Shown here: positions 4,557 through 19,415 of the stretch, one piece after another
Layout: each line of letters begins with the position of its first letter
How positions within the stretch are numbered: the first letter of the stretch is position 1
DNA from: Deltaproteobacteria bacterium
GTDB taxonomy: Bacteria; Myxococcota_A; Polyangia; Polyangiales; Houyiibacteriaceae
Direction of reading: 5' to 3'
Assembly: GCA_034670305.1 (NCBI GenBank)
Contig: JAXMNT010000029.1
Span: forward strand, 1 to 64,000
DNA length: 64,000 nt
Translations under genes and position numbers: made by a program
Notes under the pieces: generated by a model
Seen by the model: the letters and a program-made list of their open reading frames with translations, nothing else
Database searches by the model: none
Told to the model about the DNA's origin: nothing

Positions 4557-5387
4557 ATGACTTCCGCCTCCCGCGCGCTCCTCCTCTCTCTCCTCTGCGT
4601 CTCAGGCGCGTTCTTCACCGCCTGCGGAGACGACGACTCGTCCACCGCCGACACCGGCGGCGTCGACGCCTCGACCGAACGCGACACCGGCACGACGGAA
4701 GACACCGGCACGGCCGAAGACACCGGCACGGTTGAGGACACGGGCACCGAGGACACCGGCACCGAAGACGCGGGCACCGAAGACGCCGGCACCGAAGAAG
4801 ACGCCGGCACCGACGCCGGTCCGCGCGCCTGCGGTGATCTGCTCACCGTCTCCACCGTCGAAGAGCTCGTCGCGCTCGCCCCCGACCCCTACGGCCGGCC
4901 CGAGTTCGAGAGCGACTGGGAAGGCACCCTCGACATCACCACCACTGCCGCGTTCATGGTCCGGTCCAGCGACTTCCCGCGCCCGAGCGACTGCGTCGAC
5001 TTCTGCGAAACCAACGTGACTCGGCGTGGCGGCATGGGCGTCGCGTTTGCAGAAGGCGGCATCGCAGTCGAAGCCGGCGCCATGTTCCGGCTCCGCTTCG
5101 CGACCCAGTTCCTCGCGCCCGCCGGCGACTTCGCCATCGTCGCCTTCCACGACCCCTGCACCGCCGAGTGCGCCGACGGCGCGCGCCGATGCGACGACGA
5201 CAACGCCTGCTACCGCGCCGGAAGCTCCTACTGCCAAGCCTGCGACCACGAGTCCCAGCAGCGGTGCGCATGCGTCGGCCCCGACGGCGACCGCCCCGAA
5301 GGCTCCGACTGCACCATCATCACGGGCGACATCGCCGAAGTCGGCACGTGCAGCGCCGAAGGCACCTGCGAACGCACCGACTTCTAA
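4557..5387 (+). CDS. Hypothetical Cys-rich lipoprotein with EDTGT/EDAGT pentapeptide linker
   Basis: Lipobox FTAC; 15-18 bp tandem units encoding TEDTG/TEDAG; Cys-rich C-terminus. Confidence 0.8.
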   Translation: MTSASRALLLSLLCVSGAFFTACGDDDSSTADTGGVDASTERDTGTTEDTGTAEDTGTVEDTGTEDTGTEDAGTEDAGTEEDAGTDAGPRACGDLLTVSTVEELVALAPDPYGRPEFESDWEGTLDITTTAAFMVRSSDFPRPSDCVDFCETNVTRRGGMGVAFAEGGIAVEAGAMFRLRFATQFLAPAGDFAIVAFHDPCTAECADGARRCDDDNACYRAGSSYCQACDHESQQRCACVGPDGDRPEGSDCTIITGDIAEVGTCSAEGTCERTDF

Positions 5388-5811: not shown

Positions 5812-6789
5812 TCAGGTTGGGTGGGCGGTGTAGTCGATGGCGACGGTGCTCTCTCGGAAGTCGGCGAGGGACTGGGTCCACATGCCGCCGGGCCAGCAGT
5901 ACTCCGCCGACCGCGCCACCGGGTCGTAGACCGCGGTGTAGAGCGTGCCCCAGCCGCCCGGGCGGAAGACCTGGTAGGTCGGCGGTTCGAGGAACCGGCG
6001 CCGGAACCGTTCGGCCGTCTCCGCCGGCGCATCGACGTGGGTGTCGAGGATGTTGAACCGGTCGATGCTCGCCACCGCGTGCAGGTACTGCGACCAGACC
6101 GCGCGCGGTTGGTGGTTGGTCGCGACCCGGCGGCGGGAGAGCGTCGTGTTGCGGTCCGGCCCGACGTAGGCCGTGACGAACGCGCCCTTCGCGTCGAGCA
6201 CCGTGATGTTGTACGCCATGTGGCTCGGCACCCGGGTCAGCACCGCTGCGGCTTCTTCCGTCGTCGAACAGGTCTCGAGCAAGTAGCGCAAGACCAGTGG
6301 GATCCCAAACCCGTCGCCCGTCACCCTCTGGCCTCCGAACGCGAGCGACACACTCACCCCCGCGGCGTTCACTCCGTCGAGCGCACCCCACCCGCAATCG
6401 CTCATCGCGACCACCGGCTGGATCCACTCGGTGCGCAAGAGCAACGCCTCCCAGAGGCCGGGCGCGTAGTCGTAGTTGCGCAGCAGACGCGGCCCACCCT
6501 TGAGCCAGACCGCTTGCGAGCAGCCGTGCACGTAGGGCGTCGGGCGGTAGAGGGAGAGGCAGCGCGCCACCGCATCGCCGCCGCCCGCCAGCTCCACGAG
6601 CTCATCGTAGATGGGCACGAGCTCCGGCATGTAGCGCGCGAGCATCTTCTTCGACGCGCCATAGCTCGGCCGCGCCGCGTCCCCTTCGCGCAGGAACCAG
6701 CGGCGGTAGGCCGGCCACATGGCGCGAAAGGTCCGGCCCCAGCGTTCGCCAGGCTTCGCCTCCTCGACCGCGCGTAAGACGACCGTCAC
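5812..6789 (-). CDS. C45-family autoproteolytic Ntn-hydrolase (acyltransferase/peptidase)
   Basis: HG|CSQ candidate autocleavage site; LLRNYDY, GALDGVNAAG and ATNH motifs typical of C45/AAT Ntn hydrolases. Confidence 0.8.
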   Translation of the reverse strand: MTVVLRAVEEAKPGERWGRTFRAMWPAYRRWFLREGDAARPSYGASKKMLARYMPELVPIYDELVELAGGGDAVARCLSLYRPTPYVHGCSQAVWLKGGPRLLRNYDYAPGLWEALLLRTEWIQPVVAMSDCGWGALDGVNAAGVSVSLAFGGQRVTGDGFGIPLVLRYLLETCSTTEEAAAVLTRVPSHMAYNITVLDAKGAFVTAYVGPDRNTTLSRRRVATNHQPRAVWSQYLHAVASIDRFNILDTHVDAPAETAERFRRRFLEPPTYQVFRPGGWGTLYTAVYDPVARSAEYCWPGGMWTQSLADFRESTVAIDYTAHPT

Positions 6790-6795
6790 GTGGGG

Positions 6796-8274
6796 TCAGA
6801 GGATCTTGAAGTTGCCGAAGTCGGCCACGGGAGACGCGACGGCGTGGGGACCCTCGGGCACGTGGCTGACGTAGCAGCCGTGGATGGCGTCGATCCACCG
6901 GCGCGCGCGATCGTTGAGCTCGAACTCGTCGGTCATCAGGCGCCCGGGCGTGATGAGGATGCCGAGGTCGGCGCCTTCGTAGAGCCAGTCGCCCGGCTTG
7001 GTGATGCGCAGGAAGAACCCTTCGTCCTCACGCTCCACCGTGCGTCGGTGGGTCTGCACCCGGATGAACTCGGCGGTGCCGTCGGGCATGAGGCGGTACA
7101 CCCCCGAGCGCGGCGCGCCGGTGACGATCTGGGCGACGTCGCCCGTGTGCTTCATGACCAGCTGGCCCCATCCGTCGATGTTCGAGGGGTCGCTCCAGCG
7201 TTCGTTGATCTCGTCGACGTCGAGCTCGAACGGCACGCCGGAGAACTCGAGCAGGTGGAAGAGAAAGAGTGGCGCGTCCGCGTGCGCGAAGGCGGCGAGG
7301 TTGGTCATCGCGCTCGCGCCGGTGATGCGCGGGTTCACTTCGCCGAGGTAGAGCGTGTCGGTGTCGAGGTCCCGGAGGAAGTCGAGCTCGAAGTAGCCGC
7401 GGTAGCCGAGCTCCTTGAGCTCGTTGCCGAACGCGATCGTCATCGCGCGCGCTTGGTCGCGCACGTCCTGGGTGAACGAGTCGGCGAGCACTTCGTTGCC
7501 GCACCAGCCGCCCTTGTACGGCGTGAGCGACGGGAACCCGACGAGCTCCGTCATGAGCGGTCCGACGATGGTTCCGTGCCGCGTGACGCACGCTTCCTGG
7601 GCCGCGCCGCGGCACCGGATGCGCTTCATGACCTTGACCTCGGGCGCTTCCAAGATCTCGGCTTCGTGCCGCTGGTACTCCTCTTCGTTCGAGACGAAGA
7701 AGGTCGTGTGGCCCGAGTCGCCGAACGCGGTTTGCAATACGAGCTGCTCGCCGAGCTCCGCGGTGCTCTCGCGCAGGTGCGCGTAGCTTTCGACCTTGGT
7801 GAGCACGTTCGGCACCGAGGCGATGCCAGCGCGGTTGCCGATGCGGGTGGTCTCGATCTTGTCGTCGACCATCGTGCGCAGCTTCGCGGGTGGGAAACAC
7901 ACGTCGAGGCCGAGCTCCTTGCAGAGCGCCTCGGTGGTCTCGTCGAAGAACAGGAACACCGCGCGACCGCGGCCTTCGCCGAGCCGCTGCTTCAAGTAGT
8001 CGACGACCTCTTTGTGCTCGAGCAGGTAGTTGTTGATGTCTTCGATGCTCGTGAACGGGCGGTGCGGCGCCTCGCTCGGCACGAACACGCTCGGGTGTTC
8101 CCCATCGAAGCAGTCGATGTAGTTGATGAACCGGAACGAGCGGACCCACTCGTCGATGCCGATGAGGTTGAAGTTCGTCGCGCTGATGAAGAAGGTCGGC
8201 GTCTCGTTGCGGTAGAAGTACCGCCGAATGTCGGAGAGCCCGTGCAGGGTGGGCTCGTCGTTCGGGTTCGTCAT
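6796..8274 (-). CDS. ATP-grasp ligase of unknown specificity (biotin-carboxylase-like fold)
   Basis: DDKIET, QTAFGDSGHTTF, GYRGYFELDFL and LYLGEVNPRITG (ExNPR) ATP-grasp motifs; no BCCP or carboxyltransferase gene nearby. Confidence 0.8.
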   Translation of the reverse strand: MTNPNDEPTLHGLSDIRRYFYRNETPTFFISATNFNLIGIDEWVRSFRFINYIDCFDGEHPSVFVPSEAPHRPFTSIEDINNYLLEHKEVVDYLKQRLGEGRGRAVFLFFDETTEALCKELGLDVCFPPAKLRTMVDDKIETTRIGNRAGIASVPNVLTKVESYAHLRESTAELGEQLVLQTAFGDSGHTTFFVSNEEEYQRHEAEILEAPEVKVMKRIRCRGAAQEACVTRHGTIVGPLMTELVGFPSLTPYKGGWCGNEVLADSFTQDVRDQARAMTIAFGNELKELGYRGYFELDFLRDLDTDTLYLGEVNPRITGASAMTNLAAFAHADAPLFLFHLLEFSGVPFELDVDEINERWSDPSNIDGWGQLVMKHTGDVAQIVTGAPRSGVYRLMPDGTAEFIRVQTHRRTVEREDEGFFLRITKPGDWLYEGADLGILITPGRLMTDEFELNDRARRWIDAIHGCYVSHVPEGPHAVASPVADFGNFKIL

Positions 8275-11129
8275 CGGCTGGCTCCGGTCGTGGGATGTGC
8301 GGGATCGAGGGGTGCGCGCGGGCTCGCGTGTTGGAGACGCGCGTCGAGTGCGGCCTCGGAGAAGATTCGGAAGCCGAGACGCGGGTCGAACCCGTGGATC
8401 TCGGTGACGTCGAGGGCGGCGAGGTAGTCGAGGATCTCGGCGGTGATCACCTGGCCGGGCACGAGCACCGGAAAGCCAGGCGGGTAGGGCGTCACGAACG
8501 ACGCGGCCACCAGATCGCGCGTGTCGACGAAGGCGCGTGCGTCGTCGAGGCGGAGGTGTTCACACTGGGTCTCGTCGTAGGCGAGGAAGAACGCCGCGCG
8601 CAGGTCGCCTTCGGGGGTGTCGACGGTTGGGTCGGGCCGGAACGCATCGTGGAATCGGCTGAAGTCGGGCAGCGGCGGAAGGTCCACCGTCAGCGACTTC
8701 ACTTGCGAGGCGTGCAGCCGCAGCTCGGTCTCGCTTGCGCGCGTGAGCCGCGCGTCGAGCTCGGTCGCGATGGTGTGCAAGACCTTGAGCAGGTGCGCGA
8801 TCGTGCCGCGGGTCATGCCCACGTGCACCAGGAAGAGCAGCGTGTTGCGCGAGGTCTTGTTGATGTGGATGTCGAAGCGCTCCATCAACAGGTGCTTCAT
8901 CGTGTCGCCGTCCATCCCGGTCCGGCCGATGTGCACGGTCACCCGGGTCGGATCGAGCACCAGCTCGTCCTGTGCCCAGGCCGGTTCGATCGGCGCGAAG
9001 CCGGTGGTCTGGTCGTAGTAGGTCTCGAGCCCGCTCGGCCGGTACCTCTCGGGCACCATGGCGCCCGGTCCGAGGACCTCGAAGTAGCGCGAGGTGAGCT
9101 CGTCTTCTTTGATGCGCTCGCGCAAGCTCATGGCGAGTTCGATGCTCTGCGCGACGAACGCGTGCCCTTCGAGTTCGACCTGCCGGCGACCCACGTCGAG
9201 CGACGCCAGGATCTGGTAGTTCGGCGACGTCGAGGTGTGCGTCATGTACGCGTCGTGGAAGGGCTCGGCGACGCGCCGATCGAAGTCCTGATCGAACACG
9301 TGGATCATCGATCCTTGCCGGAGCGAGGTCAGCGTCTTGTGGGTCGAGTGCGTGGCGTAGACCCGCACGCTCGCCTTCTTCGGGTCCGGCATCAGCCGGT
9401 GGTCGAGCCAGGTCGCGTCGTCGTCTGGATCGAGCGCGGCCCGCTCGGACTGCCACGCGGCGTGTTCCTCGGCGTAGGCCGGGCTCGCCAGCCGTTCTTC
9501 GAGCCGGCGCGAGGCTTCCATCGCGGTGCGCCGGCGCAGCACGGGCGAGAACCGTCCGTAGGCGAACCACGCCTCGTCCCACACGAACGTAACGTGCGGT
9601 GCGATCGCGAGGACCTCTTCCATCACGCGGAGGGGGTCGTAGGTGATGCCGTCGAAGGTGAGGTTCGTGAGCAGAAGCACCCGCAGCCGATCCAGCTTGC
9701 CCGCCTTCTTCAGGCGCAGGAGCGCGCGCTTGATCACCCGCAGCGGCACGCCGCCGTACATGCTCAGTTCGCGCAGCGGGTAGCCATCCAGGTAGATGGG
9801 GTAGGCGCCCGACAAGATCACACCGTACGGGTGCGACTTGTGGCAGTCGTGGGCGAGCATGACGATGTCGGTCGGCCGCACGAGCGCCTGCATCACGATC
9901 TTGTTGGCGGTCGAGGTCCCGTTGGTGACGAAGAAGCTGTGGCGCGATCCAAACGCGCGCGCCGCGAACTCCTGCGCGTACTTCAACGAGCCGGTCGGCT
10001 GGTTCAGAGAGTCGAGCCCGCCGGTGGTCGCCGAGGTCTCCGCGAGGAAGATGTTCTCTCCGTAGAACTCCCCCATGTCGCGGATCCAATGCGACTTCGT
10101 GATCGTGCGCCCCCGAGAGATCGGCAGCGCATGGAACATGCCGGTCGGCTTCTGGCTGTACCGCCGAAGCGCATCGAAGAAGGGCGTCTCGTAGCGCGCG
10201 TGAATGCCCTTGAGCACACTCAAATGGGTGTCGAGCCAATCTTCGCCCCGGTAGTAGGTCCGGCGGAAGTGGCGTGTGACGAGTGGGCTGAGCTGTTCGA
10301 CCGGTGCGTTGGTCACCAGGTGCAGATCGATCTCGGGCCGCAACCCGGCGATCGCTCCGCCAAGCGTCAACGTTCGTTGTCCCGGCATCAACGCCGCGGC
10401 GTCTTCCGGCGACGCGTCGAGCACGGTGTAGATGGAGGCGAGCAGCGGCGGCTGCCACGCGGACTGGGTCGCGAACGAGTAGCGCAAGAGGCACGCCTGC
10501 ACGTCCGGGTTGAGCGCGGCCGCGATCAGCGCGTCTTCGTAGGTGCGCACCACCACGATCTCGTAGACGTACGCGTCCGTCGCGCGCCGGCAGGCCCGAA
10601 GCTCGCGCCGCAGCTGGGCTTCACCCTCGGCGTCGACGTCCGCGACGACCAGGAGCTCGAAGTAGGGCCGCGCATCCCGACCGGCGACGAACTGGGATTC
10701 TTCCCCGTCGGTGCCGAGCAGAAGCTCTGCGTAGTCCTCGACGCTGGTGAGCGTCAGGTCGAGGCCGCGGTAGGCGTCGCCGGTCCAGAAGCCCACGACG
10801 CGGGCCGTCTGCGCTGCGAGCGCGGCGCGGTCCTCGCTGTCGAACGTCGCGCGCAACCGCTCGAGCACGGTCGCTCCAGGAAACGCGAAGTAGAGCTCCA
10901 ACGGTTCGAGGAACTCGAACGCCGCGCGGATGGCGCCCGCGAGACGCGTCGCCTCTTCGGTGTCCGCGTCGACCCGCGCAAGCCGTCGCGCCGCATCGCG
11001 CAGGCGGCTCCAAGTGTCGGTGCGCAGACGCTGCGCGTTGTAGAGCGTCGCGCACGCGACAGGCGCCGACTCGACGTCGGTGGCCGCCTGGCGTGGGGTG
11101 CCGTTGGCGGTCGAATCGTGGGAGGTCAT
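8271..11129 (-). CDS. PLP-dependent Orn/Lys/Arg decarboxylase, large form with N-terminal extension
   Basis: GLDSL..PTG, FFVTNGTSTANKIV, CHKSH, DEAWFAY, HSTHKTL (PLP Lys), HTSTSPNY and PYPPGFPVLVPG. ATG 11129 overlaps the upstream stop. Confidence 0.9.
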   Translation of the reverse strand: MTSHDSTANGTPRQAATDVESAPVACATLYNAQRLRTDTWSRLRDAARRLARVDADTEEATRLAGAIRAAFEFLEPLELYFAFPGATVLERLRATFDSEDRAALAAQTARVVGFWTGDAYRGLDLTLTSVEDYAELLLGTDGEESQFVAGRDARPYFELLVVADVDAEGEAQLRRELRACRRATDAYVYEIVVVRTYEDALIAAALNPDVQACLLRYSFATQSAWQPPLLASIYTVLDASPEDAAALMPGQRTLTLGGAIAGLRPEIDLHLVTNAPVEQLSPLVTRHFRRTYYRGEDWLDTHLSVLKGIHARYETPFFDALRRYSQKPTGMFHALPISRGRTITKSHWIRDMGEFYGENIFLAETSATTGGLDSLNQPTGSLKYAQEFAARAFGSRHSFFVTNGTSTANKIVMQALVRPTDIVMLAHDCHKSHPYGVILSGAYPIYLDGYPLRELSMYGGVPLRVIKRALLRLKKAGKLDRLRVLLLTNLTFDGITYDPLRVMEEVLAIAPHVTFVWDEAWFAYGRFSPVLRRRTAMEASRRLEERLASPAYAEEHAAWQSERAALDPDDDATWLDHRLMPDPKKASVRVYATHSTHKTLTSLRQGSMIHVFDQDFDRRVAEPFHDAYMTHTSTSPNYQILASLDVGRRQVELEGHAFVAQSIELAMSLRERIKEDELTSRYFEVLGPGAMVPERYRPSGLETYYDQTTGFAPIEPAWAQDELVLDPTRVTVHIGRTGMDGDTMKHLLMERFDIHINKTSRNTLLFLVHVGMTRGTIAHLLKVLHTIATELDARLTRASETELRLHASQVKSLTVDLPPLPDFSRFHDAFRPDPTVDTPEGDLRAAFFLAYDETQCEHLRLDDARAFVDTRDLVAASFVTPYPPGFPVLVPGQVITAEILDYLAALDVTEIHGFDPRLGFRIFSEAALDARLQHASPRAPLDPAHPTTGASR

Positions 11130-11989
11130 TGCCGGCCTTTGTGTCGCCCCGGCTTCGTCAACGGTCCGAGCGTGGAGAGGTACGCGCGCTCTTTCGAGTC
11201 GCGCATGCCGACCTGAAAGTCGATCGGTGCATCGCGAAAACTCTTCAGTGGTTGTCCGAGGTTTCGCAGGCCGCGCTCGCGACCACGCGCGACCCGGTCG
11301 AGATCGATTTCGATCGGGATGATCTCTTCGGTCGGGCCCGCCTGGTGCAGCACCTCTCCGGCTGGGCCGCATACGATCGAGTGGCCGACGCCGCCGGCGC
11401 CGAGCCCGTTGATGTCGAAGAAGAAGCACTGGTTGGTCGCCGCCGAGGCGCGCGCGATCGAGAGCTCGACGTCGCGGTCGATCGTGCCGGTCAGCGACGG
11501 GTGCAAGATCACTTCGGCGCCCGCACACGCGAGGGTCCGCGTGGTCTCCGGCATCCACATGTCGTAACAGATGGAGACGCCGAACTTTCCGACGTTGGGC
11601 ACGTCGAACGTCACGAACTCCGTGCCCGGCTCGACGCCTTCTTCGTAGGGCATGAACGGGAACATCTTGCGGTAGCGCGCCACGACCTCGCCGTGCGGAT
11701 CGAACACCGAGCAGGTGTTGTAGACCTTGTCGCCCTCGCGCTCGAAGACCGATCCGTTGACCACCCAGATCTTGTGGTGGGCGGCCATCTCGGCGAACGC
11801 CTGCTGCGCTTTGTCGGCGGCTTCGGCGTGCTTCAGCGCTGGACCGAAGGCCGCCAGTTCGCTGAACACCACCATGTCGACCCATGGAAAGAGCATCACC
11901 GCGTGGTCCACGCGCGCACGGAGGTAGGGCAGGTTCTCGCGCAGGCCGGACGTACCGAGCTGCAGACCTGCGATCGCGAAGGGTCTCAT
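11126..11989 (-). CDS. Carbon-nitrogen hydrolase (nitrilase superfamily amidase)
   Basis: E-K-C triad motifs VFSEL, YRKMFP and ICYDMWMPE; ATGA overlaps at both ends. Confidence 0.9.
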   Translation of the reverse strand: MRPFAIAGLQLGTSGLRENLPYLRARVDHAVMLFPWVDMVVFSELAAFGPALKHAEAADKAQQAFAEMAAHHKIWVVNGSVFEREGDKVYNTCSVFDPHGEVVARYRKMFPFMPYEEGVEPGTEFVTFDVPNVGKFGVSICYDMWMPETTRTLACAGAEVILHPSLTGTIDRDVELSIARASAATNQCFFFDINGLGAGGVGHSIVCGPAGEVLHQAGPTEEIIPIEIDLDRVARGRERGLRNLGQPLKSFRDAPIDFQVGMRDSKERAYLSTLGPLTKPGRHKGRQ

Positions 11990-13341
11990 GAAGGAAGTTC
12001 CTTGCTGGCTTCCGCCAGCGCGTCTGAAAGGGCATCGAGCGCGACGTCGAGGTCGGCGTCGGAGATCACGAGGGGCGGGAGCACCCGGAGGACGTTGCCC
12101 TCCACCCCTGCGCCGAGAACCAGCACGCCGCGCTCCAAACACTTCGCGGCGATGGCCTTGGCGAGTTCGGGCGCGGGGCGTCGAGGGTCGCCATCGAAGC
12201 TGAGCTCCATGCCCATCATCGCGCCGAGCCCCCGCACGTCGCCCACATGCGGGGACGACGCGGCCATGGAGAGGAGGCGTTCTCGGATGCGTGCACCGAG
12301 CGCCGCGGCGCGGGCGCACAGGTCGTCGCGCTCCATCACGCGCAACGTCGCGAGCGCCGCGGCGCACGAAACGGGGTTGCCGCCGAAAGTGCCGCCGATG
12401 GTGCCCGGCACCGCGGCTTGCATGACTTCGTCTTTGCCAACGACGGCGCCGATCGGCAGGCCGCCGCCGAGCGCTTTGGCCCAGGTCGAGAGATCCGGCA
12501 CGACGCCGGCGTGTTCGTACGCGGCCCATCGGCCGGTGCGGCACAACCCGCTCTGCACTTCGTCCGCGATCAGCAGGATGCCGTGTTCGTCACAGATCGC
12601 GCGCAGCCCCTGCAGGTACGCCGCGGGTGCGGGCACGATGCCGCCTTCTCCGAGCACCGGTTCGATCAGGATCGCCGCGAGTTGTTCGGGCGCCACCCGG
12701 TTCGTCAGCGCTTCCCGCAAAGCTGCCAGCGCCTGTTCCACGAACACCGCTTCGTCCGCGACGCCTGCGTGGTACCGGTGCGGGTAGTCGACTCGGTAGA
12801 CCTCGGGCGCGAACGGACCGCAGCCACGCTTGTACGCGACCTTCGAGGTGAGGGTCATGCCGAGCAACGTGCGGCCGTGGAACGCGCCGGTGAAACACAG
12901 CACCCCCGCGCGACCGGTCGCTTGCCGCGCGATCTTGACCGCGTTCTCCACCGCTTCGGCGCCGGAGTTCACGAGCATCGCGCGCGTCGGCCCGCCGTGC
13001 GGCAGCAGCTCGGCCAGGCGCTCGCACACCGCGACGTACGGCTCGTAGCTCGCGACGTGCATGCACACGTGCAGCAGCGCGCCCGCCTGTTGGCGGATGG
13101 CTTCGACCACCTCGGGGTGTCCATGCCCAACGCTCATCACACCGATGCCCGCAGCGAGATCGATGATGGAGCGTCCGTCCGCGTCGACGAGCCGGGCGCC
13201 GCTGGCCGAGCGGATGTCGAGCGTGGTCGCGCGCGGCACCCCTTGCGCGACCACCGCGGTGCGCCGATCCACGAGCCCGGTGTGTGCGGTGCTGGCCTCG
13301 ACAGTCGCAGTGCTGGCTGTGGGAATCGCAGGGGTGGTCAC
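11986..13341 (-). CDS. gabT: 4-aminobutyrate aminotransferase (class III PLP aminotransferase)
   Basis: DLAAGIGV, NSGAEAVENAVKIAR, FHGRT, IEPVLGEGG, ADEVQSGLCRTG, AKALGGGLP and GGTFGGNP; clustered with gabD and puuR. Confidence 0.85.
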   Translation of the reverse strand: MTTPAIPTASTATVEASTAHTGLVDRRTAVVAQGVPRATTLDIRSASGARLVDADGRSIIDLAAGIGVMSVGHGHPEVVEAIRQQAGALLHVCMHVASYEPYVAVCERLAELLPHGGPTRAMLVNSGAEAVENAVKIARQATGRAGVLCFTGAFHGRTLLGMTLTSKVAYKRGCGPFAPEVYRVDYPHRYHAGVADEAVFVEQALAALREALTNRVAPEQLAAILIEPVLGEGGIVPAPAAYLQGLRAICDEHGILLIADEVQSGLCRTGRWAAYEHAGVVPDLSTWAKALGGGLPIGAVVGKDEVMQAAVPGTIGGTFGGNPVSCAAALATLRVMERDDLCARAAALGARIRERLLSMAASSPHVGDVRGLGAMMGMELSFDGDPRRPAPELAKAIAAKCLERGVLVLGAGVEGNVLRVLPPLVISDADLDVALDALSDALAEASKELPS

Positions 13342-13358
13342 GCGAGACCGCGCGAGTT

Positions 13359-13374
13359 GGTCAACATCATGAAC
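13359..13374. promoter_or_regulatory. Candidate PuuR-type operator, site 1 (GGTCAACATCATGAAC)
   Basis: Imperfect palindrome 17 bp upstream of the gabT start; 12/16 identical to site 2; lies in the AT-rich divergent promoter region. Confidence 0.55.
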
Positions 13375-13432
13375 GCGACCTCCGGGTCATTTTCACTTTT
13401 CACAAAAAGCTCTTACCATATTTCCAATCATC

Positions 13433-13448
13433 GTTCAAGATATTGAAC
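13433..13448. promoter_or_regulatory. Candidate PuuR-type operator, site 2 (GTTCAA-GATA-TTGAAC)
   Basis: Perfect 6-4-6 inverted repeat ending 2 bp before the regulator ATG. Confidence 0.65.
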
Positions 13449-13450
13449 AC

Positions 13451-14023
13451 ATGGATGGAACAGACAGCGGACCCGAAGAAGACGATGTGGGCGTGCGATT
13501 GCGCGCGCTCCGTACCTCCTACGGCATGAGCCAGCGCGAGCTCGCCCGGCGCACGGGGGTTCCGAACGGGACCATCTCGATGATCGAGAAAGGCCGCGTC
13601 AGCCCGTCGATCGCCTCGCTGAAGCGGATCGCTGCGGGGTTGTCCATGTCGCTCGCCGAGTTCTTCTCGGTCGAAGCCCAGCCCGAGGCGGATGTCTTCT
13701 TCGACGCCTCCGAGCTCGAGGAGATCGGGGGCGGCAAGGTGTCGCTGCGCGCGGTCGGCCGCACCGGAGACGGCGGGCAGCTCCAGCTCCTGCACGAACG
13801 CTATGAGCCAGGCGGCGACACCGGCGCCGAGATGCTCACCCACATCGGCGAAGAGGCCGGGGTCGTCGTGTCCGGCGAGATCGAGATCACCGTCGCCGGC
13901 ATGACGCGCGTCCTTCGCGCCGGCGATGCGTACCGCTTCGACAGCCGCCTCCCCCACCGCTTCCGCAACGTGTCCGACGAACTCTGCGAGCTCGTCAGCG
14001 CGTGCACCCCTCCCACCTTTTGA
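13451..14023 (+). CDS. puuR: XRE-HTH plus cupin transcriptional regulator (PuuR/PauR type)
   Basis: SQRELARRTGVPNGTISMIE...SPSIASL HTH; cupin H.GEE.G.V..G; C-terminal FDSRLPHRFRN...SACTPPTF as in PuuR. Confidence 0.8.
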   Translation: MDGTDSGPEEDDVGVRLRALRTSYGMSQRELARRTGVPNGTISMIEKGRVSPSIASLKRIAAGLSMSLAEFFSVEAQPEADVFFDASELEEIGGGKVSLRAVGRTGDGGQLQLLHERYEPGGDTGAEMLTHIGEEAGVVVSGEIEITVAGMTRVLRAGDAYRFDSRLPHRFRNVSDELCELVSACTPPTF

Positions 14024-14033
14024 GACGCCTTCC

Positions 14034-15539
14034 ATGACCGACCGACACACCTTCTTCTCTCCATTGCTCGACCGCCTTGGGGGGTACGTCGACGGAGCGT
14101 GGATCCTCGCCACGGACACGGTGTCGAAAGGGAAGCAGCGCCCCACCTTCCGCGTCACCGACCCGGCCACCGGCGCGCTGCTGGCCGAGCTGCCCGAACT
14201 CGGCGCCGGGGAGACCACCGCCGGCGTCGAAGCCGCGCGCAGGGCGATGACCACCACGCCACCGATCGCACGGCGCCGCGCCTGGCTCGAGAAGATCGTC
14301 TCGTTGCTCGAAGCGAACGCCGACGAGCTCGCCCGCATCGTCACCGCCGAAAACGGCAAACCCCTCGCGGAAGCGCGCGGCGAAGTCATGTACGCCGCCG
14401 GCTTCTACGCCCAGGCCGCCGCCGACATCGAACACCTCCAGCCGCACGTCGTCGACGGCCAGCCCCGCGGTTCCCAAGGCCAACACCGCGGCCACACCTG
14501 GACCGTGTACCACCGGCCCGCCGGCGTCGCCGCGCTCATCACCCCGTGGAACTTCCCCCTCGCGATGCTCGCCAAGAAGCTCGCCGGCGCGATCGCCGGC
14601 GGCTGCGCCGTCGTCGTGAAGCCGGCCGAGATCACCCCGCTCAGCTGCATCGCGTTCTTCCGGTTGCTCGAGCAAGTCGACCTGCCGAAGGGCTTCGTGA
14701 ACCTCGTGTTCGGAGACGTCGTCCCGATCGGCGAAGTGCTCTGCACCCATCCCGCCGTGCGCGTCCTCAGCTTCACCGGCTCGACCCCCGTCGGCCGCTT
14801 GCTCGCCGCACAGTGCGCCCCGCACCTCAAGCGCCTCTCGCTCGAGCTCGGCGGCAACGCCCCCTTCCTCGTCTTCGAAGACGCCGACCTCGACGACGCC
14901 GTCGAGCGCCTCCTCGCCAACAAGTTCCGCGCCGCCGGCCAGACCTGCGTCTGCACCAACCGCGTCCTCGTGCACACGTCGGTCGCCGACGCCTTCGCCA
15001 CCAAACTCGGCGCCCGCGTCTCGAAACTCGTCGCCGGCCCCGGCACCGAAAAGGGCGTCGACCTCGGCCCCCTCATCGACGGCCGCGGCTGGGACAAAGT
15101 CCGAGCACACCTCCAAGACGCCCTCGACCTCGGAGCCAAGATCGTCAGCGGCGAAGTCCCCGAGGCGCGCCCCACCGAAGCCGAAGGCTGGTTCTTCCGC
15201 CCCGTCGTCCTGCGCGACGTCCCCGCCGAAGCCCGCTGCATGAACGAAGAGACCTTCGGCCCCCTCGTCCCCATCCGCACCTTCGAGACCGAAGCCGAAG
15301 CCCTCGAGATCGCGAACGGCGTCGAAGCCGGCCTCGCCGCCTACGTCTTCACCAAAGACCCCGCCCGCGGCGCCCGGGTCGTCGCCGGATTGAGGTACGG
15401 CCACGTAGGCCTGAACACCGCCACCGGCCCCACCCCCGAAGCCCCCTTCGGAGGCATGGGCGCCAGCGGCTACGGCCGAGAAGGCGGGGTGGAAGGGCTG
15501 ATGGAATACACAGAAGCCCAGACCGTCCCGACGCCGTAG
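14034..15539 (+). CDS. gabD: NAD(P)-dependent succinate-semialdehyde dehydrogenase
   Basis: ITPWNFP, KPAE.TP, SFTGSTPVG, LELGGNAPF, AGQTCVC, EETFGP and APFGG motifs. Confidence 0.85.
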   Translation: MTDRHTFFSPLLDRLGGYVDGAWILATDTVSKGKQRPTFRVTDPATGALLAELPELGAGETTAGVEAARRAMTTTPPIARRRAWLEKIVSLLEANADELARIVTAENGKPLAEARGEVMYAAGFYAQAAADIEHLQPHVVDGQPRGSQGQHRGHTWTVYHRPAGVAALITPWNFPLAMLAKKLAGAIAGGCAVVVKPAEITPLSCIAFFRLLEQVDLPKGFVNLVFGDVVPIGEVLCTHPAVRVLSFTGSTPVGRLLAAQCAPHLKRLSLELGGNAPFLVFEDADLDDAVERLLANKFRAAGQTCVCTNRVLVHTSVADAFATKLGARVSKLVAGPGTEKGVDLGPLIDGRGWDKVRAHLQDALDLGAKIVSGEVPEARPTEAEGWFFRPVVLRDVPAEARCMNEETFGPLVPIRTFETEAEALEIANGVEAGLAAYVFTKDPARGARVVAGLRYGHVGLNTATGPTPEAPFGGMGASGYGREGGVEGLMEYTEAQTVPTP

Positions 15540-15548
15540 CCCGGCTGT

Positions 15549-16325
15549 TCACTCGGTCTCGTCCTCTAGTTCCAGTTGGAACAGCCGCGCCAACCGCGTC
15601 GCGCCCACGGCCCCGATCCCCGGCACGGCTTTGACCTGTGCGGCATCGGCTGCGAACAACCGAGCCAGTGACCCGAAGTGCGCGAGCAACGCAGACGCGC
15701 GTTTCATTCCGACGCCCGGAAGTTGAGCGACGACCTGGGCACCAGGGTGGCGGTGCTTCGCGCGGGGCTTTGACCGCAGCCTCAAGCGGGAGTCCTTCGC
15801 GCCGATCCGTTCACCCATGCGACGCAGCAGCCACAGAAATGCTTCGGCCGATGGCACGTGAATCGTCGGCACCCCGTACGACAGCGCCAGCGTCAGCTCG
15901 GCCCCAAGTCGCGAAGACACGCTCAGCCCACTCGCTCGGGACTCCGAGTGCTCCACGATCAGCAGCGGAACGTACTGTCCGCGCGCGGCCCTCATCCGCC
16001 ACGCCTGACGCCACAGTCGGCCGTCGGCGAGGCTGTTGGTGAAGTCGGTCACGCTCTTGCGCTCCACCAGAAACCGGTCTTCGACGATGTAGTCACCGAC
16101 CGGCAGCGACTTCATCTCGAGAGCAACCGCTGGATCCTCGAACAGCAACTTCCACAGCGTCGAGTTTCTCTCTCCGACATCGACGACCACGCGCACGGGT
16201 GGTTGTCGCAGTGGACGCAGGACAGTTGCGGCACGTTTGCCCAGCTGGCGCCGGACATCCGATTGGTCCGCGCGACAGACTGACCAAGGTTCAAAGGTCT
16301 GCAGCGCTGCGCGCAGGACAGACAC
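15549..16325 (-). CDS. ERCC4/XPF-type nuclease with tandem helix-hairpin-helix domains
   Basis: VVDVGE, LPVGDYIV and VERKSVTDF..SLADGRL..Q ERCC4 core; LPGVG.KRA and VPGIG..GA HhH motifs. Start uncertain. Confidence 0.85.
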   Translation of the reverse strand: MSVLRAALQTFEPWSVCRADQSDVRRQLGKRAATVLRPLRQPPVRVVVDVGERNSTLWKLLFEDPAVALEMKSLPVGDYIVEDRFLVERKSVTDFTNSLADGRLWRQAWRMRAARGQYVPLLIVEHSESRASGLSVSSRLGAELTLALSYGVPTIHVPSAEAFLWLLRRMGERIGAKDSRLRLRSKPRAKHRHPGAQVVAQLPGVGMKRASALLAHFGSLARLFAADAAQVKAVPGIGAVGATRLARLFQLELEDETE

Positions 16326-16343
16326 TTGTTCGTCGAGCCGCAG

Positions 16344-19300
16344 CTACCCAGCTGCGACCTTCACTTCTTGGTAGAAGCTGGCCGGCATAGCGTAGTTCAG
16401 GGTCCATTCGATTTGCATCGGCCGTGCGCCCTTGTGGGTTCGGTAGGTGCAGGGGCCGAGGAAGCGGTAGGGCATCGTTTCTCCTCGGGCGTCCTTCTTT
16501 CGTTCGCGTACGAAGAGCAGGACGTGTTGGCCGCTTCCCGTGGTGGCCTTCGTGTAACGGCGGCCGGTCTTGGTGCCGGCGTGGCAGGAGCTCTGGCTCT
16601 CCCAGTGGAAGCGCGTCCGGCTGATCGGGTAGTCGTTGTAGAGGGTGGTGGGGCTGTAGTCCTTCTCGCTCTTCTCCAGGGTGACGAACAAGAGATCCGC
16701 CTTGAGTCGCTCGACGTAGTAGACGCCGGTCTGGATCTTCTTCACGCCGCCCTTCTTGGTGCGTTCGTCGACCGCGGCCATGACCTCGAGCAGGCCGTAG
16801 GTGGCGTGGAGGCGAAGCGCCGGGATCGTCACGCCTTCGAGCGGCGCACTCACCAGGCGAGAGCGGTCGTCGAGCAGTGCGAGGAGTTGGCGGAGTTCGT
16901 CGAGCAGATGAGGCCTGGCCCAGAGGCCGTCCCAGTAGTTCTGCATCTCGGCGTAGGGGCCCATCTCGCCGAGCAACACGTAGAGCAGACGTTGCCAGTG
17001 GTCGCTGGGGTTCGCCTTCGGTGCCGAGGTCTTGCCGACCAGAGAGCGTAGGCCACGGAGGCGGTCGACATCGTCGATGTGGAGCAAGCGGGCGAACGCG
17101 CGCTCGAGCTTCTTGTCGGCGGCGGTTCGTTCGCGCGTCTCGAGACCGGCGGCCCGCCGCAACTGCGTCCACGTCCAGCCACCGCTGCTCGCGTAGATGT
17201 CTTCGAGTTCGGTGCCGGTCTCCGCAAGGAATGCAGCGAGCGACAGGCCCGGCGTCTCGCGGCCGAGGACCCGCAGGTCTTCGATGAGCCCTCGGTGTCC
17301 GCTGCCGAGGGCGTCCTGAATGTTCTTCAAGACGGCGTCCTGCGATGTGCGGTCGAGCGACATGAAGCAGCCGGTGGGGAGGGAGGGAAACCCTGCCTTC
17401 ACCTGCGCCTCGATGCTCCGGCGGGTGCCGCCAACGATGGCGCGGTACCGCACGTCGAAGCGGAACTTGCGGTGGGCACCCCCGATGAAGTCGAGCACGG
17501 TGCAGCAGGCTTTGCCCTCGGCGATGCGAAGACCGCGCCCGAGCTGCTGGAGAAAGACCGTCGCGCTCTCGGTCGGTCGCAAGAAGAGGAGGGTGTCGAC
17601 CCGCGGCACGTCTACGCCTTCGTTGAACAGGTCGACGCTGAACACGATCTGCACTTTGCCGGCGTCCAGATCCCGAAGGGCCGCGTCGCGGTCAGCGGAG
17701 TTCGTGCGGCTCGAGACCGCATGCGCGTGGATCCCGTGCTGGTTGAACTGCTCGGCCATGAACTCGGCGTGTGCGATGTCCACGCAGAAGCCGAGCGCCC
17801 GCATGGACTGAACGTCCCCAATCTTTCCTTGCAACTCTTGGAGCACCCGCTTCACGAAGAGGTGGTCGGCGGTGTAGACGTTGCTCAGTTCGGACGCGTC
17901 GTAGCGGCCGCGTGACCAGGTCACGCCGCTCACGTCGGGGCCCGCGAGACCGAAGTACTGAAATGGGCTCAAGAGCCCCTGATCGAGCGCCTTCCAGAGC
18001 CGGATCTCGCTCGCGATGCGTCCGTCGAAGTGGTGAAGGATCGACTTGCCGTCGGTCCGCTCGGGCGTCGCGGTGAGACCCAGGAGCACCTTGGGTTTCA
18101 GGTGTTCGAGCAGCCGGTCGTAGCTGTCCGCGGCCGCGTGGTGGAACTCGTCGACAATGACGACATCGAAGTGGTCGGGTGGGATGTTCGCGAGCCGGGC
18201 GGCCGGCAACGACTGGATGCTCGCGAACACTTCGTTCCATGTGTGCGGCACGTCGCCCTGGAAGAGCGCCTCGCCGAATCCTCCGTCGCGCAGGACGACC
18301 CGGAAGGTGTTCAGGCTCTGCTCCAGAATCTCGCGCCGATGCGCGACGAACAGGACGCGCGGGTGATTCTTGCGGAGCCGCTTGTAGTCGAGCGCCGCGA
18401 CGACGGTCTTGCCGGTGCCTGTGGCTGCGACCACCAGGTTTCGGCGGTGTCCGCGTGATCGCTCCGCCGCCAGGTCGTCCAGGATCTCGCTCTGGTGTGC
18501 CTTCGGCGCGATGTCGAAACGCAGCAGGCCAGCGCTCCGCTGTCGTTTGTGTTGGGTGACGGCTTGGTGGAACTCGTCGGCATCGAACGGACGAAACTCG
18601 GGGTCGGCCCAGTATTGCTCGAAGGTGGTGTGGAACTTCTCCAGGATGGCCTGGTTGTCGACCTGCGAGAGCCGCACGTTCCATTCGAGGCCGTCGAGCA
18701 TGGCAGCGCCACTCAAGTTGGAAGAGCCAACGTATCCGGTCGAGAATCCCGAGTCCCGATGGAAGAGCCAGGCTTTTGCGTGAAGACGCGTGCGCGCCGA
18801 GTCGTAGGACACCCGAACCTGCGCGCCCATGTCGGCCAGTTCCTTCAACGCCCGAAGTTCGGTGGCGCCGGTGTAGGTGGTCGTGAGAACCCGAACCGAT
18901 TCGGGATGGCGTTTAAGGTGCTTCTTGAGCTCCGCCTCCACGATGCGCAGCCCGCTGAACTTCAAGAAGGAGCAGAGCAGATCAATGCGGTTGGCGGACC
19001 CGATCTCGCGCCGGACCTCGGGCCCAATGGACAGATCGTGGCGTCCGTTGACCAGCAACTCGGACGTCGAAAGCGGAATGCGCGGGCGCTCGGGCGCACT
19101 GGGCAGGGCTGGAAGCGCGACGGGTTCCAGCACCGCCTTGAGAAGCTGGCCGGGCGAAGCGACTGCGTCCTGCTCGAGCACGACGCCCCTGGTCTTTCCG
19201 CGAACCAGCGCCAAGACGGCGTTGGCGAGTTCGATCTGAGCGTCGACTTCCGCGAGTGAGTCGAGCGCCGGGACCAGTCGATCAAAAAGAAGACGTGCAA

Positions 19301-19415
19301 TCGCGTGCGCGCTTCCATGTCGGTCGAGCGCGACGAGCTCCGCGAGCTCTTTCGCCAGAGAACGGCGCAGTGACTCGGTGATTGGTGTGTCGTAGAGACC
19401 GGGCTCGAGCGGCAT
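16344..19415 (-). CDS. PLD nuclease - SF2 helicase - DUF3427 protein (SauUSI-like type IV restriction enzyme architecture)
   Basis: HAK...GSSNLS PLD motif; ATGTGKT, DEFHH, LTATPER and QQLGRGLR helicase motifs; C-terminal FVTLEK...YNDY...FHWESQ...LFVR...FLG DUF3427 pattern. Confidence 0.85.
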   Translation of the reverse strand: MPLEPGLYDTPITESLRRSLAKELAELVALDRHGSAHAIARLLFDRLVPALDSLAEVDAQIELANAVLALVRGKTRGVVLEQDAVASPGQLLKAVLEPVALPALPSAPERPRIPLSTSELLVNGRHDLSIGPEVRREIGSANRIDLLCSFLKFSGLRIVEAELKKHLKRHPESVRVLTTTYTGATELRALKELADMGAQVRVSYDSARTRLHAKAWLFHRDSGFSTGYVGSSNLSGAAMLDGLEWNVRLSQVDNQAILEKFHTTFEQYWADPEFRPFDADEFHQAVTQHKRQRSAGLLRFDIAPKAHQSEILDDLAAERSRGHRRNLVVAATGTGKTVVAALDYKRLRKNHPRVLFVAHRREILEQSLNTFRVVLRDGGFGEALFQGDVPHTWNEVFASIQSLPAARLANIPPDHFDVVIVDEFHHAAADSYDRLLEHLKPKVLLGLTATPERTDGKSILHHFDGRIASEIRLWKALDQGLLSPFQYFGLAGPDVSGVTWSRGRYDASELSNVYTADHLFVKRVLQELQGKIGDVQSMRALGFCVDIAHAEFMAEQFNQHGIHAHAVSSRTNSADRDAALRDLDAGKVQIVFSVDLFNEGVDVPRVDTLLFLRPTESATVFLQQLGRGLRIAEGKACCTVLDFIGGAHRKFRFDVRYRAIVGGTRRSIEAQVKAGFPSLPTGCFMSLDRTSQDAVLKNIQDALGSGHRGLIEDLRVLGRETPGLSLAAFLAETGTELEDIYASSGGWTWTQLRRAAGLETRERTAADKKLERAFARLLHIDDVDRLRGLRSLVGKTSAPKANPSDHWQRLLYVLLGEMGPYAEMQNYWDGLWARPHLLDELRQLLALLDDRSRLVSAPLEGVTIPALRLHATYGLLEVMAAVDERTKKGGVKKIQTGVYYVERLKADLLFVTLEKSEKDYSPTTLYNDYPISRTRFHWESQSSCHAGTKTGRRYTKATTGSGQHVLLFVRERKKDARGETMPYRFLGPCTYRTHKGARPMQIEWTLNYAMPASFYQEVKVAAG

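Follow-up and report, generated by a model that had tools for sequence, protein, structure and literature searches.

A putative GABA-shunt operon that includes a branch for GABA conjugation in a Deltaproteobacteria bacterium and its conservation across bacterial phyla

Two enzymes of Mycobacterium tuberculosis that handle gamma-aminobutyric acid (GABA) were characterised separately in 2025-2026. The long-form decarboxylase Rv2531c, when purified and supplied with Mg2+, converts L-glutamate to GABA and leaves lysine, ornithine and arginine untouched, and in the reported analysis of an rv2531c knockout GABA was down 84%, labelling of GABA from 13C-glutamate was abolished and GABA alone was changed (PMC13506015). 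The second enzyme, Rv1722 (GabtS), is an ATP-grasp protein annotated as a possible (biotin) carboxylase; in purified form it joins GABA to trehalose at the expense of ATP, giving 6'-GABA-trehalose, and refuses glucose (bioRxiv 10.64898/2026.04.15.718621). GABA-trehalose is present at millimolar concentration in M. tuberculosis, and the preprint authors describe it as apparently unique to mycobacteria and name its breakdown route as an open question (10.64898/2026.04.15.718621). The third system of relevance is the Puu pathway of E. coli, whose logic is one of ATP-dependent conjugation followed by hydrolysis. Here we describe a seven-gene cluster at positions 5,812 to 15,539 of a 64,000-nucleotide stretch of DNA from a Deltaproteobacteria bacterium (contig JAXMNT010000029.1 of assembly GCA_034670305.1, positions 1 to 64,000; hereafter the window), in which relatives of the two mycobacterial enzymes are encoded side by side with two hydrolases, as they are in many other phyla. 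On balance, and with moderate confidence, we read this cluster as an operon for a GABA shunt to which a branch for conjugating GABA is attached, by which the cell would make GABA, burn it and reversibly store or buffer it.

The features of the cluster, the inverted repeats having been found by pattern scan, are as follows.

5812-6789, minus strand: C45-family N-terminal nucleophile (Ntn) hydrolase/acyltransferase proenzyme, 325 amino acids (PF03417, 93.9 bits; NF040521, 151.5 bits, cut-off 85)
6796-8274, minus strand: ATP-grasp ligase, 492 amino acids (NF005096/PRK06524, 724.3 bits, cut-off 684)
8271-11129, minus strand: long-form pyridoxal phosphate (PLP) decarboxylase of the Rv2531c type, four-domain, 952 amino acids (PF01276)
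11126-11989, minus strand: nitrilase-superfamily C-N hydrolase, 287 amino acids (PF00795, 117.9 bits)
11986-13341, minus strand: class-III aminotransferase, GABA-transaminase-like (gabT-like), 451 amino acids (PF00202, 416 bits)
13359-13374, GGTCAACATCATGAAC, and 13433-13448, GTTCAAGATATTGAAC: two operator-like inverted repeats in the divergent spacer
13451-14023, plus strand: XRE-HTH and cupin regulator, PuuR-like, 190 amino acids (HTH_3, 56.4 bits; Cupin_2, 63.2 bits)
14034-15539, plus strand: aldehyde dehydrogenase, succinate-semialdehyde-dehydrogenase-like (gabD-like), 501 amino acids (PF00171, 482 bits)

The five minus-strand genes are divergent from the PuuR-like and gabD-like pair, the start of the latter gene being placed at 14034 from the start and stop positions in the list of open reading frames (ORFs). 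The same kind of positions give 4-bp ATGA overlaps between gabT and the C-N hydrolase gene, between the C-N hydrolase and decarboxylase genes and between the decarboxylase and ATP-grasp genes, with a 6-bp gap between ATP-grasp and C45. All of this is in agreement with an earlier note on this DNA, made from the letters alone, and the family labels given there agree with our Pfam and NCBIfam scans.

In the scheme that we propose the decarboxylase would convert L-glutamate to GABA, as its characterised relative Rv2531c does, after which the GabT-like and then the GabD-like enzyme, judged at the level of their families, would convert GABA to succinate by way of succinate semialdehyde. By analogy with the M. 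tuberculosis member of its family, the ATP-grasp enzyme would use ATP to activate GABA at its carboxyl group and link it to an acceptor. Going by its linkage to these genes only, the C45 protein may free GABA from the conjugate or transfer the 4-aminobutyryl group, while a putative role for the omega-amidase-like C-N hydrolase is the cutting of a further amide in the conjugation branch, and the PuuR-like repressor would govern both divergent transcripts via the two palindromes in the spacer. Production of an amine and its degradation to succinate would thus be joined in one unit, as the earlier note had supposed. Of its broader suggestion, an undescribed diamine pathway, one part stands, namely a bond-forming and bond-cleaving set of enzymes without a published joint pathway, but the amine concerned would be GABA and probably not a diamine.

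A literature search found no published account of the operon, although preprint supplements, which possibly include homologue tables, were not covered by it. The name 'Rv2531c' has 0 occurrences in the text of the Rv1722 preprint, where the gene neighbourhood also goes unmentioned (10.64898/2026.04.15.718621). Conversely, the available text of the main Rv2531c paper mentions neither ATP-grasp nor gene neighbourhood (PMC13506015). Those parts that have characterised relatives are known ones; the operon as a whole is not.

The first step of the scheme depends on the decarboxylase. Residues 25-935 of the 952-residue window protein align to residues 15-907 of Rv2531c (PDB 9n0n_A; E 3.4e-242, 809.7 bits), which belongs to the same four-domain length class with 947 amino acids (PDB 9N0N/9N0O/9N0P; PMC13506015, PMC12329521); canonical Lys/Arg/Orn decarboxylases in the PDB match the core of the window protein only, at 188 bits or less. 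In Rv2531c, K570 is the PLP lysine and R576 has been proposed to act at the gamma-carboxylate (PMC13506015). The window protein keeps H430, K431, K598, R604, T634 and N757, which correspond to H405, K406, K570, R576, T606 and N731 of Rv2531c, and among 65 cluster-linked decarboxylases the equivalents of H405, K570 and R576 are present in all 65, that of N731 in 64 and those of K406 and T606 in 63 each. It has also been reported that the Rv2531c sequence cluster takes in Halomonas, Myxococcus and Enhygromyxa (PMC13506015). The source assembly (7.9 Mb, 105 contigs, 96% complete) contains no other OKR_DC_1 gene, and no strong GadB-type gene was found anywhere in it (best match 65 bits). The window enzyme is probably an L-glutamate decarboxylase that makes GABA. 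It differs from Rv2531c in that its gene lies in an operon with gabT, the ligase and two hydrolases, whereas the Rv2531c papers, as far as their available text goes, mention no gene neighbourhood (PMC13506015, PMC12329521).

These data bear directly on a Puu-like diamine route, in which lysine, ornithine or arginine would be decarboxylated to a diamine or agmatine, the product acylated by the ATP-grasp enzyme and oxidised by GabT and GabD, and the acyl group removed by the C45 and C-N hydrolases. The placing of the decarboxylase in the Orn/Lys/Arg family by both Pfam and NCBIfam would suit such a route, and the earlier note had called the protein a basic-amino-acid decarboxylase, but this is a full-length relative of an enzyme that was inactive on all three of those amino acids and whose loss altered GABA only, and the gamma-carboxylate arginine is invariant (65/65). 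Since Rv2531c decarboxylates glutamate, the amine is expected to be GABA and not putrescine, cadaverine or agmatine. The score of 809.7 bits corresponds, by our arithmetic, to about 238, over the threshold of 185 used for the sequence network in the Rv2531c paper, so that the window protein would be linked to Rv2531c there. For glutamate Rv2531c has a K0.5 of 509 mM (Hill number 4; PMC13506015), and a value so high leaves space for other substrates. A diamine would also be in keeping with the PuuR-like regulator and with the presence of a ligase and two hydrolases, which fit a protect-and-deprotect logic, yet the characterised relative of the ligase takes GABA as acyl donor instead of acylating an amine. 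Taken together we regard the diamine route as very improbable.

The evidence for the nature of the ligase comes from family membership. In a search of the whole genome the ATP-grasp protein scored 724.8 bits on NF005096, above the cut-off of 684. Its PDB sequence matches are marginal, and its structural model (predicted local distance difference test score, pLDDT, 87) has biotin carboxylase domains and PurK as nearest folds at only 11-15% identity; in a protein atlas it falls only in clusters labelled 'biotin carboxylase'. Conservation of the family is striking, with 60-72% identity to relatives from other phyla. The protein is 47% identical over 440 amino acids (E 5e-131) to P0307, a 'biotin carboxylase-like protein' of Mycobacterium tuberculosis CAS/NITR204 that is taken here as the product of Rv1722 and whose residues 1-448 score 849.3 bits on NF005096. 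The window protein is therefore a probable GABA-conjugating ligase that has been mislabelled as 'biotin carboxylase', and probably no substitute for PuuA in glutamylating a diamine, given its kinship to a ligase with which GABA reacts through its own carboxyl group. Membership of NF005096 is common to the window protein and Rv1722, and the tie to GABA comes from assay in Rv1722 and from the operon in the window. The two differ in the hydrolase partner, which is the C45 protein in the window and a NylB-like domain of beta-lactamase fold in P0307, and in range, for the preprint treats the metabolite as mycobacterial whereas the enzyme family spans many phyla. Three other functions were considered and set aside because the characterised relative joins GABA as a ligase: a true carboxylase, despite the biotin-carboxylase/PurK-like fold; an enzyme forming acyl-coenzyme A; and a ligase to which the C45 protein would deliver ammonia as a glutaminase subunit.

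The association of these genes is not peculiar to the window. A one-genome-per-species scan with the ATP-grasp protein gave at least 579 encoding stretches, and for 80 retained loci the neighbouring genes were scored by tblastn with the seven window proteins. By their record titles these loci span Gemmatimonadota, Planctomycetota, Myxococcota, Acidobacteriota, Bacteroidota, Sumerlaeota, Chloroflexota, Verrucomicrobiota and Alpha-, Beta- and Gammaproteobacteria. In 72 loci the sequence runs on for 1.2 kb or more downstream of ATP-grasp, and in all but one of these (71) C45 is the gene directly behind it. Where the flanks are full (at least 7 kb upstream and at least 5 kb downstream; 43 loci) C45 was found in all 43, the decarboxylase and the C-N hydrolase in 40 each, gabT in 29, gabD in 24 and the PuuR-like gene in 4, and the decarboxylase, C-N hydrolase, C45 and gabT occur together in 26. 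This gene arrangement is far beyond chance. Three of the full-flank loci are without the decarboxylase, which is encoded elsewhere in one of the genomes and was not found with the window query in the other two; three are without the C-N hydrolase, and two of those genomes have the gene elsewhere. Clustering of all remaining ORFs from the 80 loci gave no additional family in more than 8 of them, from which it follows that there is no conserved transporter. The synteny search across species that the earlier note had called for thus recovered the genes linked across phyla, and the cluster is conserved as a unit.

It could be argued that the locus is a plain GABA shunt and that the ATP-grasp, C45 and C-N hydrolase proteins serve an unrelated process or the repair of a by-product, for example a lactam derived from activated GABA. 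GABA esters and acyl phosphates are known to cyclise to 2-pyrrolidone. The roles given here to C45 and the C-N hydrolase come from linkage, which leaves space for such a view, but the linkage in question is tight, spans phyla and ties the trio to GABA-producing genes; moreover the millimolar GABA-trehalose of M. tuberculosis, as described in the preprint, is a major metabolite and not a by-product. One locus (L022) has a gene pair of the ATP-dependent lactam-opening family adjoining the trio, in agreement with lactam repair. Overall we consider this reading, in either form, unlikely.

The locus just mentioned (L022:5451-9062) has a hydantoinase/oxoprolinase A+B pair directly upstream of the ligase-C45-C-N hydrolase trio and fumarase downstream, with the long-form decarboxylase elsewhere in the genome. 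In a Shinella sp. (L075:3386-15634) the ligase-C45 pair lies beside genes for an amino-acid permease, an arginase-family protein, a thiamine pyrophosphate enzyme, an aldehyde dehydrogenase, a DAO oxidase and a racemase-arginase fusion, and no long-form decarboxylase was found in the genome. This set of genes fits a predicted route from arginine through guanidinobutyrate to GABA that would feed the ligase-C45 pair. Both contexts are in keeping with ligase and C45 acting at the GABA branch point and not at glutamate.

Further support for a GABA-conjugation branch comes from the hydrolases that accompany the ligase. Fourteen longer ligase proteins were found, of which seven carry a domain of beta-lactamase fold, one an amidase-signature domain, one a partial decarboxylase and five an unrecognised N-terminal part. 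The fused proteins P0297-P0309 are 860-980 amino acids long and have the beta-lactamase-fold domain either before or after the ligase. In P0307 the hydrolase part (residues 563-868) is nearest to 6-aminohexanoate-dimer hydrolase (NylB; E 1e-49), an enzyme that cleaves omega-aminoacyl bonds. The main argument for supposing that the partner hydrolase acts on the product of the ligase is that non-homologous hydrolases appear to replace each other beside it. Such pairing of ligase with hydrolase points to a cycle in which a conjugate would be made and released again. The unrecognised domain of about 380 amino acids occurs in five fused ligases, one of them from Paeniglutamicibacter; in P0301 the N-terminal 375 amino acids had no match in the protein atlas and were unexplained by a PDB sequence search. 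P0310, a single protein of 1009 residues, unites the C-terminal halves of a long-form decarboxylase and of the ligase; its decarboxylase part shows 56% identity to the window decarboxylase, and the protein could have arisen by deletion or be an artefact of gene calling. The C-N hydrolase was seen fused with GabT in P0313 and with C45 in P0314 and P0315, but every one of these is represented by one sequence, with an incomplete domain, so that they may be gene-call merges and are given little weight.

In the window the partner is the C45 protein, which is predicted to cleave itself at Gly89/Cys90. In 48 sequences Cys90 is invariant and Gly89, Arg104, Asp107, Asn225 and Arg244 are at least 90% conserved, and we presume that these residues have the catalytic roles of their counterparts in related Ntn hydrolases. 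There is no sequence-level match in the PDB. The model (pLDDT 94.8) is nearest to the isopenicillin-N acyltransferase of Penicillium (2x1c, TMq 0.70; also 2X1D), with which it shares the Gly-Cys site and the Arg/Asp/Asn set; identity is only 14-15%, and the window protein, unlike that enzyme, has no link to beta-lactam synthesis. Co-folding of ATP-grasp with C45 gave a score of 0.01 against a mark of 0.32, which is uninformative either way.

The C-N hydrolase has mouse Nit2 (2w1v, 2e-22) and yeast Nit3 (1f89, 4e-20), both omega-amidases, as its best solved relatives. It reaches no NCBIfam equivalog cut-off, the best scores being 78 bits for AguB and 72 bits for nitrilase, far below. Glu44, Lys108 and Cys141 each recur in 95% or more of 63 sequences; from the surrounding motifs we take these to be the Glu-Lys-Cys triad, the positions of which are also kept in Nit2 and Nit3 (2W1V, 1F89). 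Omega-amidases act on succinamate-type amides, and this specificity is relevant to another order of events. In butirosin biosynthesis an ATP-grasp enzyme and a PLP decarboxylase build a bound GABA unit from bound glutamate, and by the same token the ATP-grasp enzyme of the window could join glutamate or one of its amides, such as glutamine, to an acceptor, the decarboxylase act on the conjugate, GabT and GabD on the resulting 4-aminobutyryl conjugate or amide and the hydrolases finally free succinate. The likeness of the C-N hydrolase to omega-amidases, the translational coupling of gabT, C-N hydrolase and decarboxylase and the poor binding of free glutamate by Rv2531c (K0.5 509 mM) would all be accounted for. 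Against this, purified Rv2531c does yield free GABA from free glutamate, purified Rv1722 takes free GABA, and the ligase-C45 pair occurs in two of three checked genomes without a detected long-form decarboxylase. We therefore hold it to be unlikely that conjugation comes first, and the conjugation of GABA once made is preferred.

Several points weigh against the preferred reading. The equivalent of Rv2531c R718 is lost, being Met744 in the window protein and Phe in 61 of the 65 cluster-linked sequences; in Rv2531c this is called a distal basic residue, which the authors were unable to test (PMC13506015). Lysine, ornithine, arginine and glutamate are the only substrates reported as tried on Rv2531c with Mg2+ (PMC13506015), and with so few amino acids tried and so high a K0.5 the enzyme may prefer a substrate other than free glutamate. 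The gabT-like protein scores 485.2 bits on TIGR00700, just below the cut-off of 506.65, and the gabD-like protein 498.1 bits on TIGR01780 against a cut-off of 646.35, so that both are family-level matches. That P0307 is the Rv1722 product we infer from its name, species and family, and the enzyme figures of the preprint state n=1 (10.64898/2026.04.15.718621). C45 proteins are as a family amide hydrolases or acyltransferases, and cleavage of an ester by the window C45 has to be assumed. At 47% identity to the M. tuberculosis ligase the acceptor need not be identical, and in three of five other carrier genomes OtsA, TreS and TreY were under cut-off, TreT and uptake not having been looked at.

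The last two points concern the acceptor of GABA. The source genome encodes OtsA (461.7 bits), and trehalose is accordingly a possible acceptor there. Among the five other carriers one has OtsA, TreS and TreY and one has TreY alone; the three with none of them above cut-off are a complete 2.9-Mb chromosome, a Halomonadaceae genome and a Marinobacter genome, and trehalose is therefore unlikely as a universal acceptor. A speculative extension, which we think quite improbable, is that GABA is stored and released by a widespread system of ligase, C45 and C-N hydrolase with an acceptor other than trehalose in most phyla and, most boldly, with GABA itself as acceptor, giving short oligo-GABA amides. 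This idea arises from the coupling of the ligase to NylB-like, amidase-signature and Ntn folds across lineages. The nylon-oligomer hydrolases NylB, NylA and NylC belong to the beta-lactamase, amidase-signature and Ntn fold classes, and oligo-GABA amides, if they exist, would be a natural counterpart of nylon-4 oligomers.

The comparison with the Puu pathway of E. coli can now be made in full. Both systems have an XRE-cupin regulator that is encoded divergently and include steps by a GABA transaminase and by an aldehyde dehydrogenase, and ATP-dependent conjugation followed by hydrolysis is likewise proposed for the window cluster, whose substrate is, in contrast, most likely glutamate/GABA and not putrescine. 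None of the seven cluster proteins has a GS-fold (Gln-synt), DAO-type oxidase or C26 domain, in agreement with the absence of puuA, puuB and puuD from the cluster that the earlier note had remarked on. A check of the rest of the genome, also suggested there, found two GS-like genes on other contigs (C16 and C19) and for C26 only weak partial matches in the whole assembly (38.7 bits or less, at model positions 94-219 in the C-terminal half). The regulator scores 154.3 bits on NF007408 against a cut-off of 211 and has the HTH_3 and Cupin_2 pair as in PuuR. A PuuR-type regulon is thus a trait of certain lineages, the regulator being present in so few of the full-flank loci.

The divergent spacer between gabT and the PuuR-like gene (13342-13450, 109 bp) is rich in A and T against a genome-wide GC content of about 68%. 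The pattern GTTCAA-N4-TTGAAC with two or fewer mismatches occurs four times in the window against 0.59 expected, and two of these occurrences lie in this spacer. A betaproteobacterial locus (L047, 13226-13241) has a perfect GTTCAA-N4-TTGAAC in its spacer between puuR and gabT, and looser variants of the palindrome lie upstream of puuR in L060 and L073. The palindromes of the spacer are candidate operators of the PuuR-like regulator. Scans for sigma-70 promoters and terminators gave nothing above chance.

How the cluster came to be distributed in this way may be reflected in its occurrence among relatives of the source organism. Of 201 genomes sampled from the phylum of the source organism 2 have the ligase family above cut-off, and of 13 sampled from its taxonomic family none has; in the other carrier within the phylum (G071, contig C23) the decarboxylase and C-N hydrolase share the ligase's contig. 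Such patchiness is in keeping with the whole set having been transferred horizontally. Rv1722 and Rv2531 both appear in a 2009 list of high-confidence horizontal acquisitions in slow-growing mycobacteria (PMC3087520 Table 2). Long forms of Rv2531c are reported from slow growers and as absent from M. smegmatis and M. abscessus (PMC13506015), as are homologues of Rv1722 (10.64898/2026.04.15.718621), and the two phyletic patterns match in the species named.

If the GABA-conjugating reading of the cluster is right, GABA conjugation is probably no mycobacterial speciality. The C45 and C-N hydrolases would be concrete candidates for the enzyme of conjugate breakdown that is sought in the preprint, and harmless, culturable carriers such as Halomonas and Marinobacter allow study of the purpose of the cycle. 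Two widespread mis-annotations, 'Orn/Lys/Arg decarboxylase' and 'biotin carboxylase', would also be corrected.

Some minor features of the loci may be added. An Owenweeksia locus (L078:6042-9194) has a restriction-modification cassette, of an Eco47II-type endonuclease and a C-5 cytosine methylase, together with a PD-(D/E)XK transposase-like gene as an insertion between the decarboxylase and the ligase. The left boundary of the window cluster is formed by a convergent plus-strand gene (4557-5387) for a protein of 276 amino acids with a lipoprotein-like start, acidic DTGTE repeats and no Pfam match. At the right boundary (15549-19415, minus strand) lies a convergent gene for an ERCC4-HhH nuclease, followed by an ORF of 1023 amino acids.

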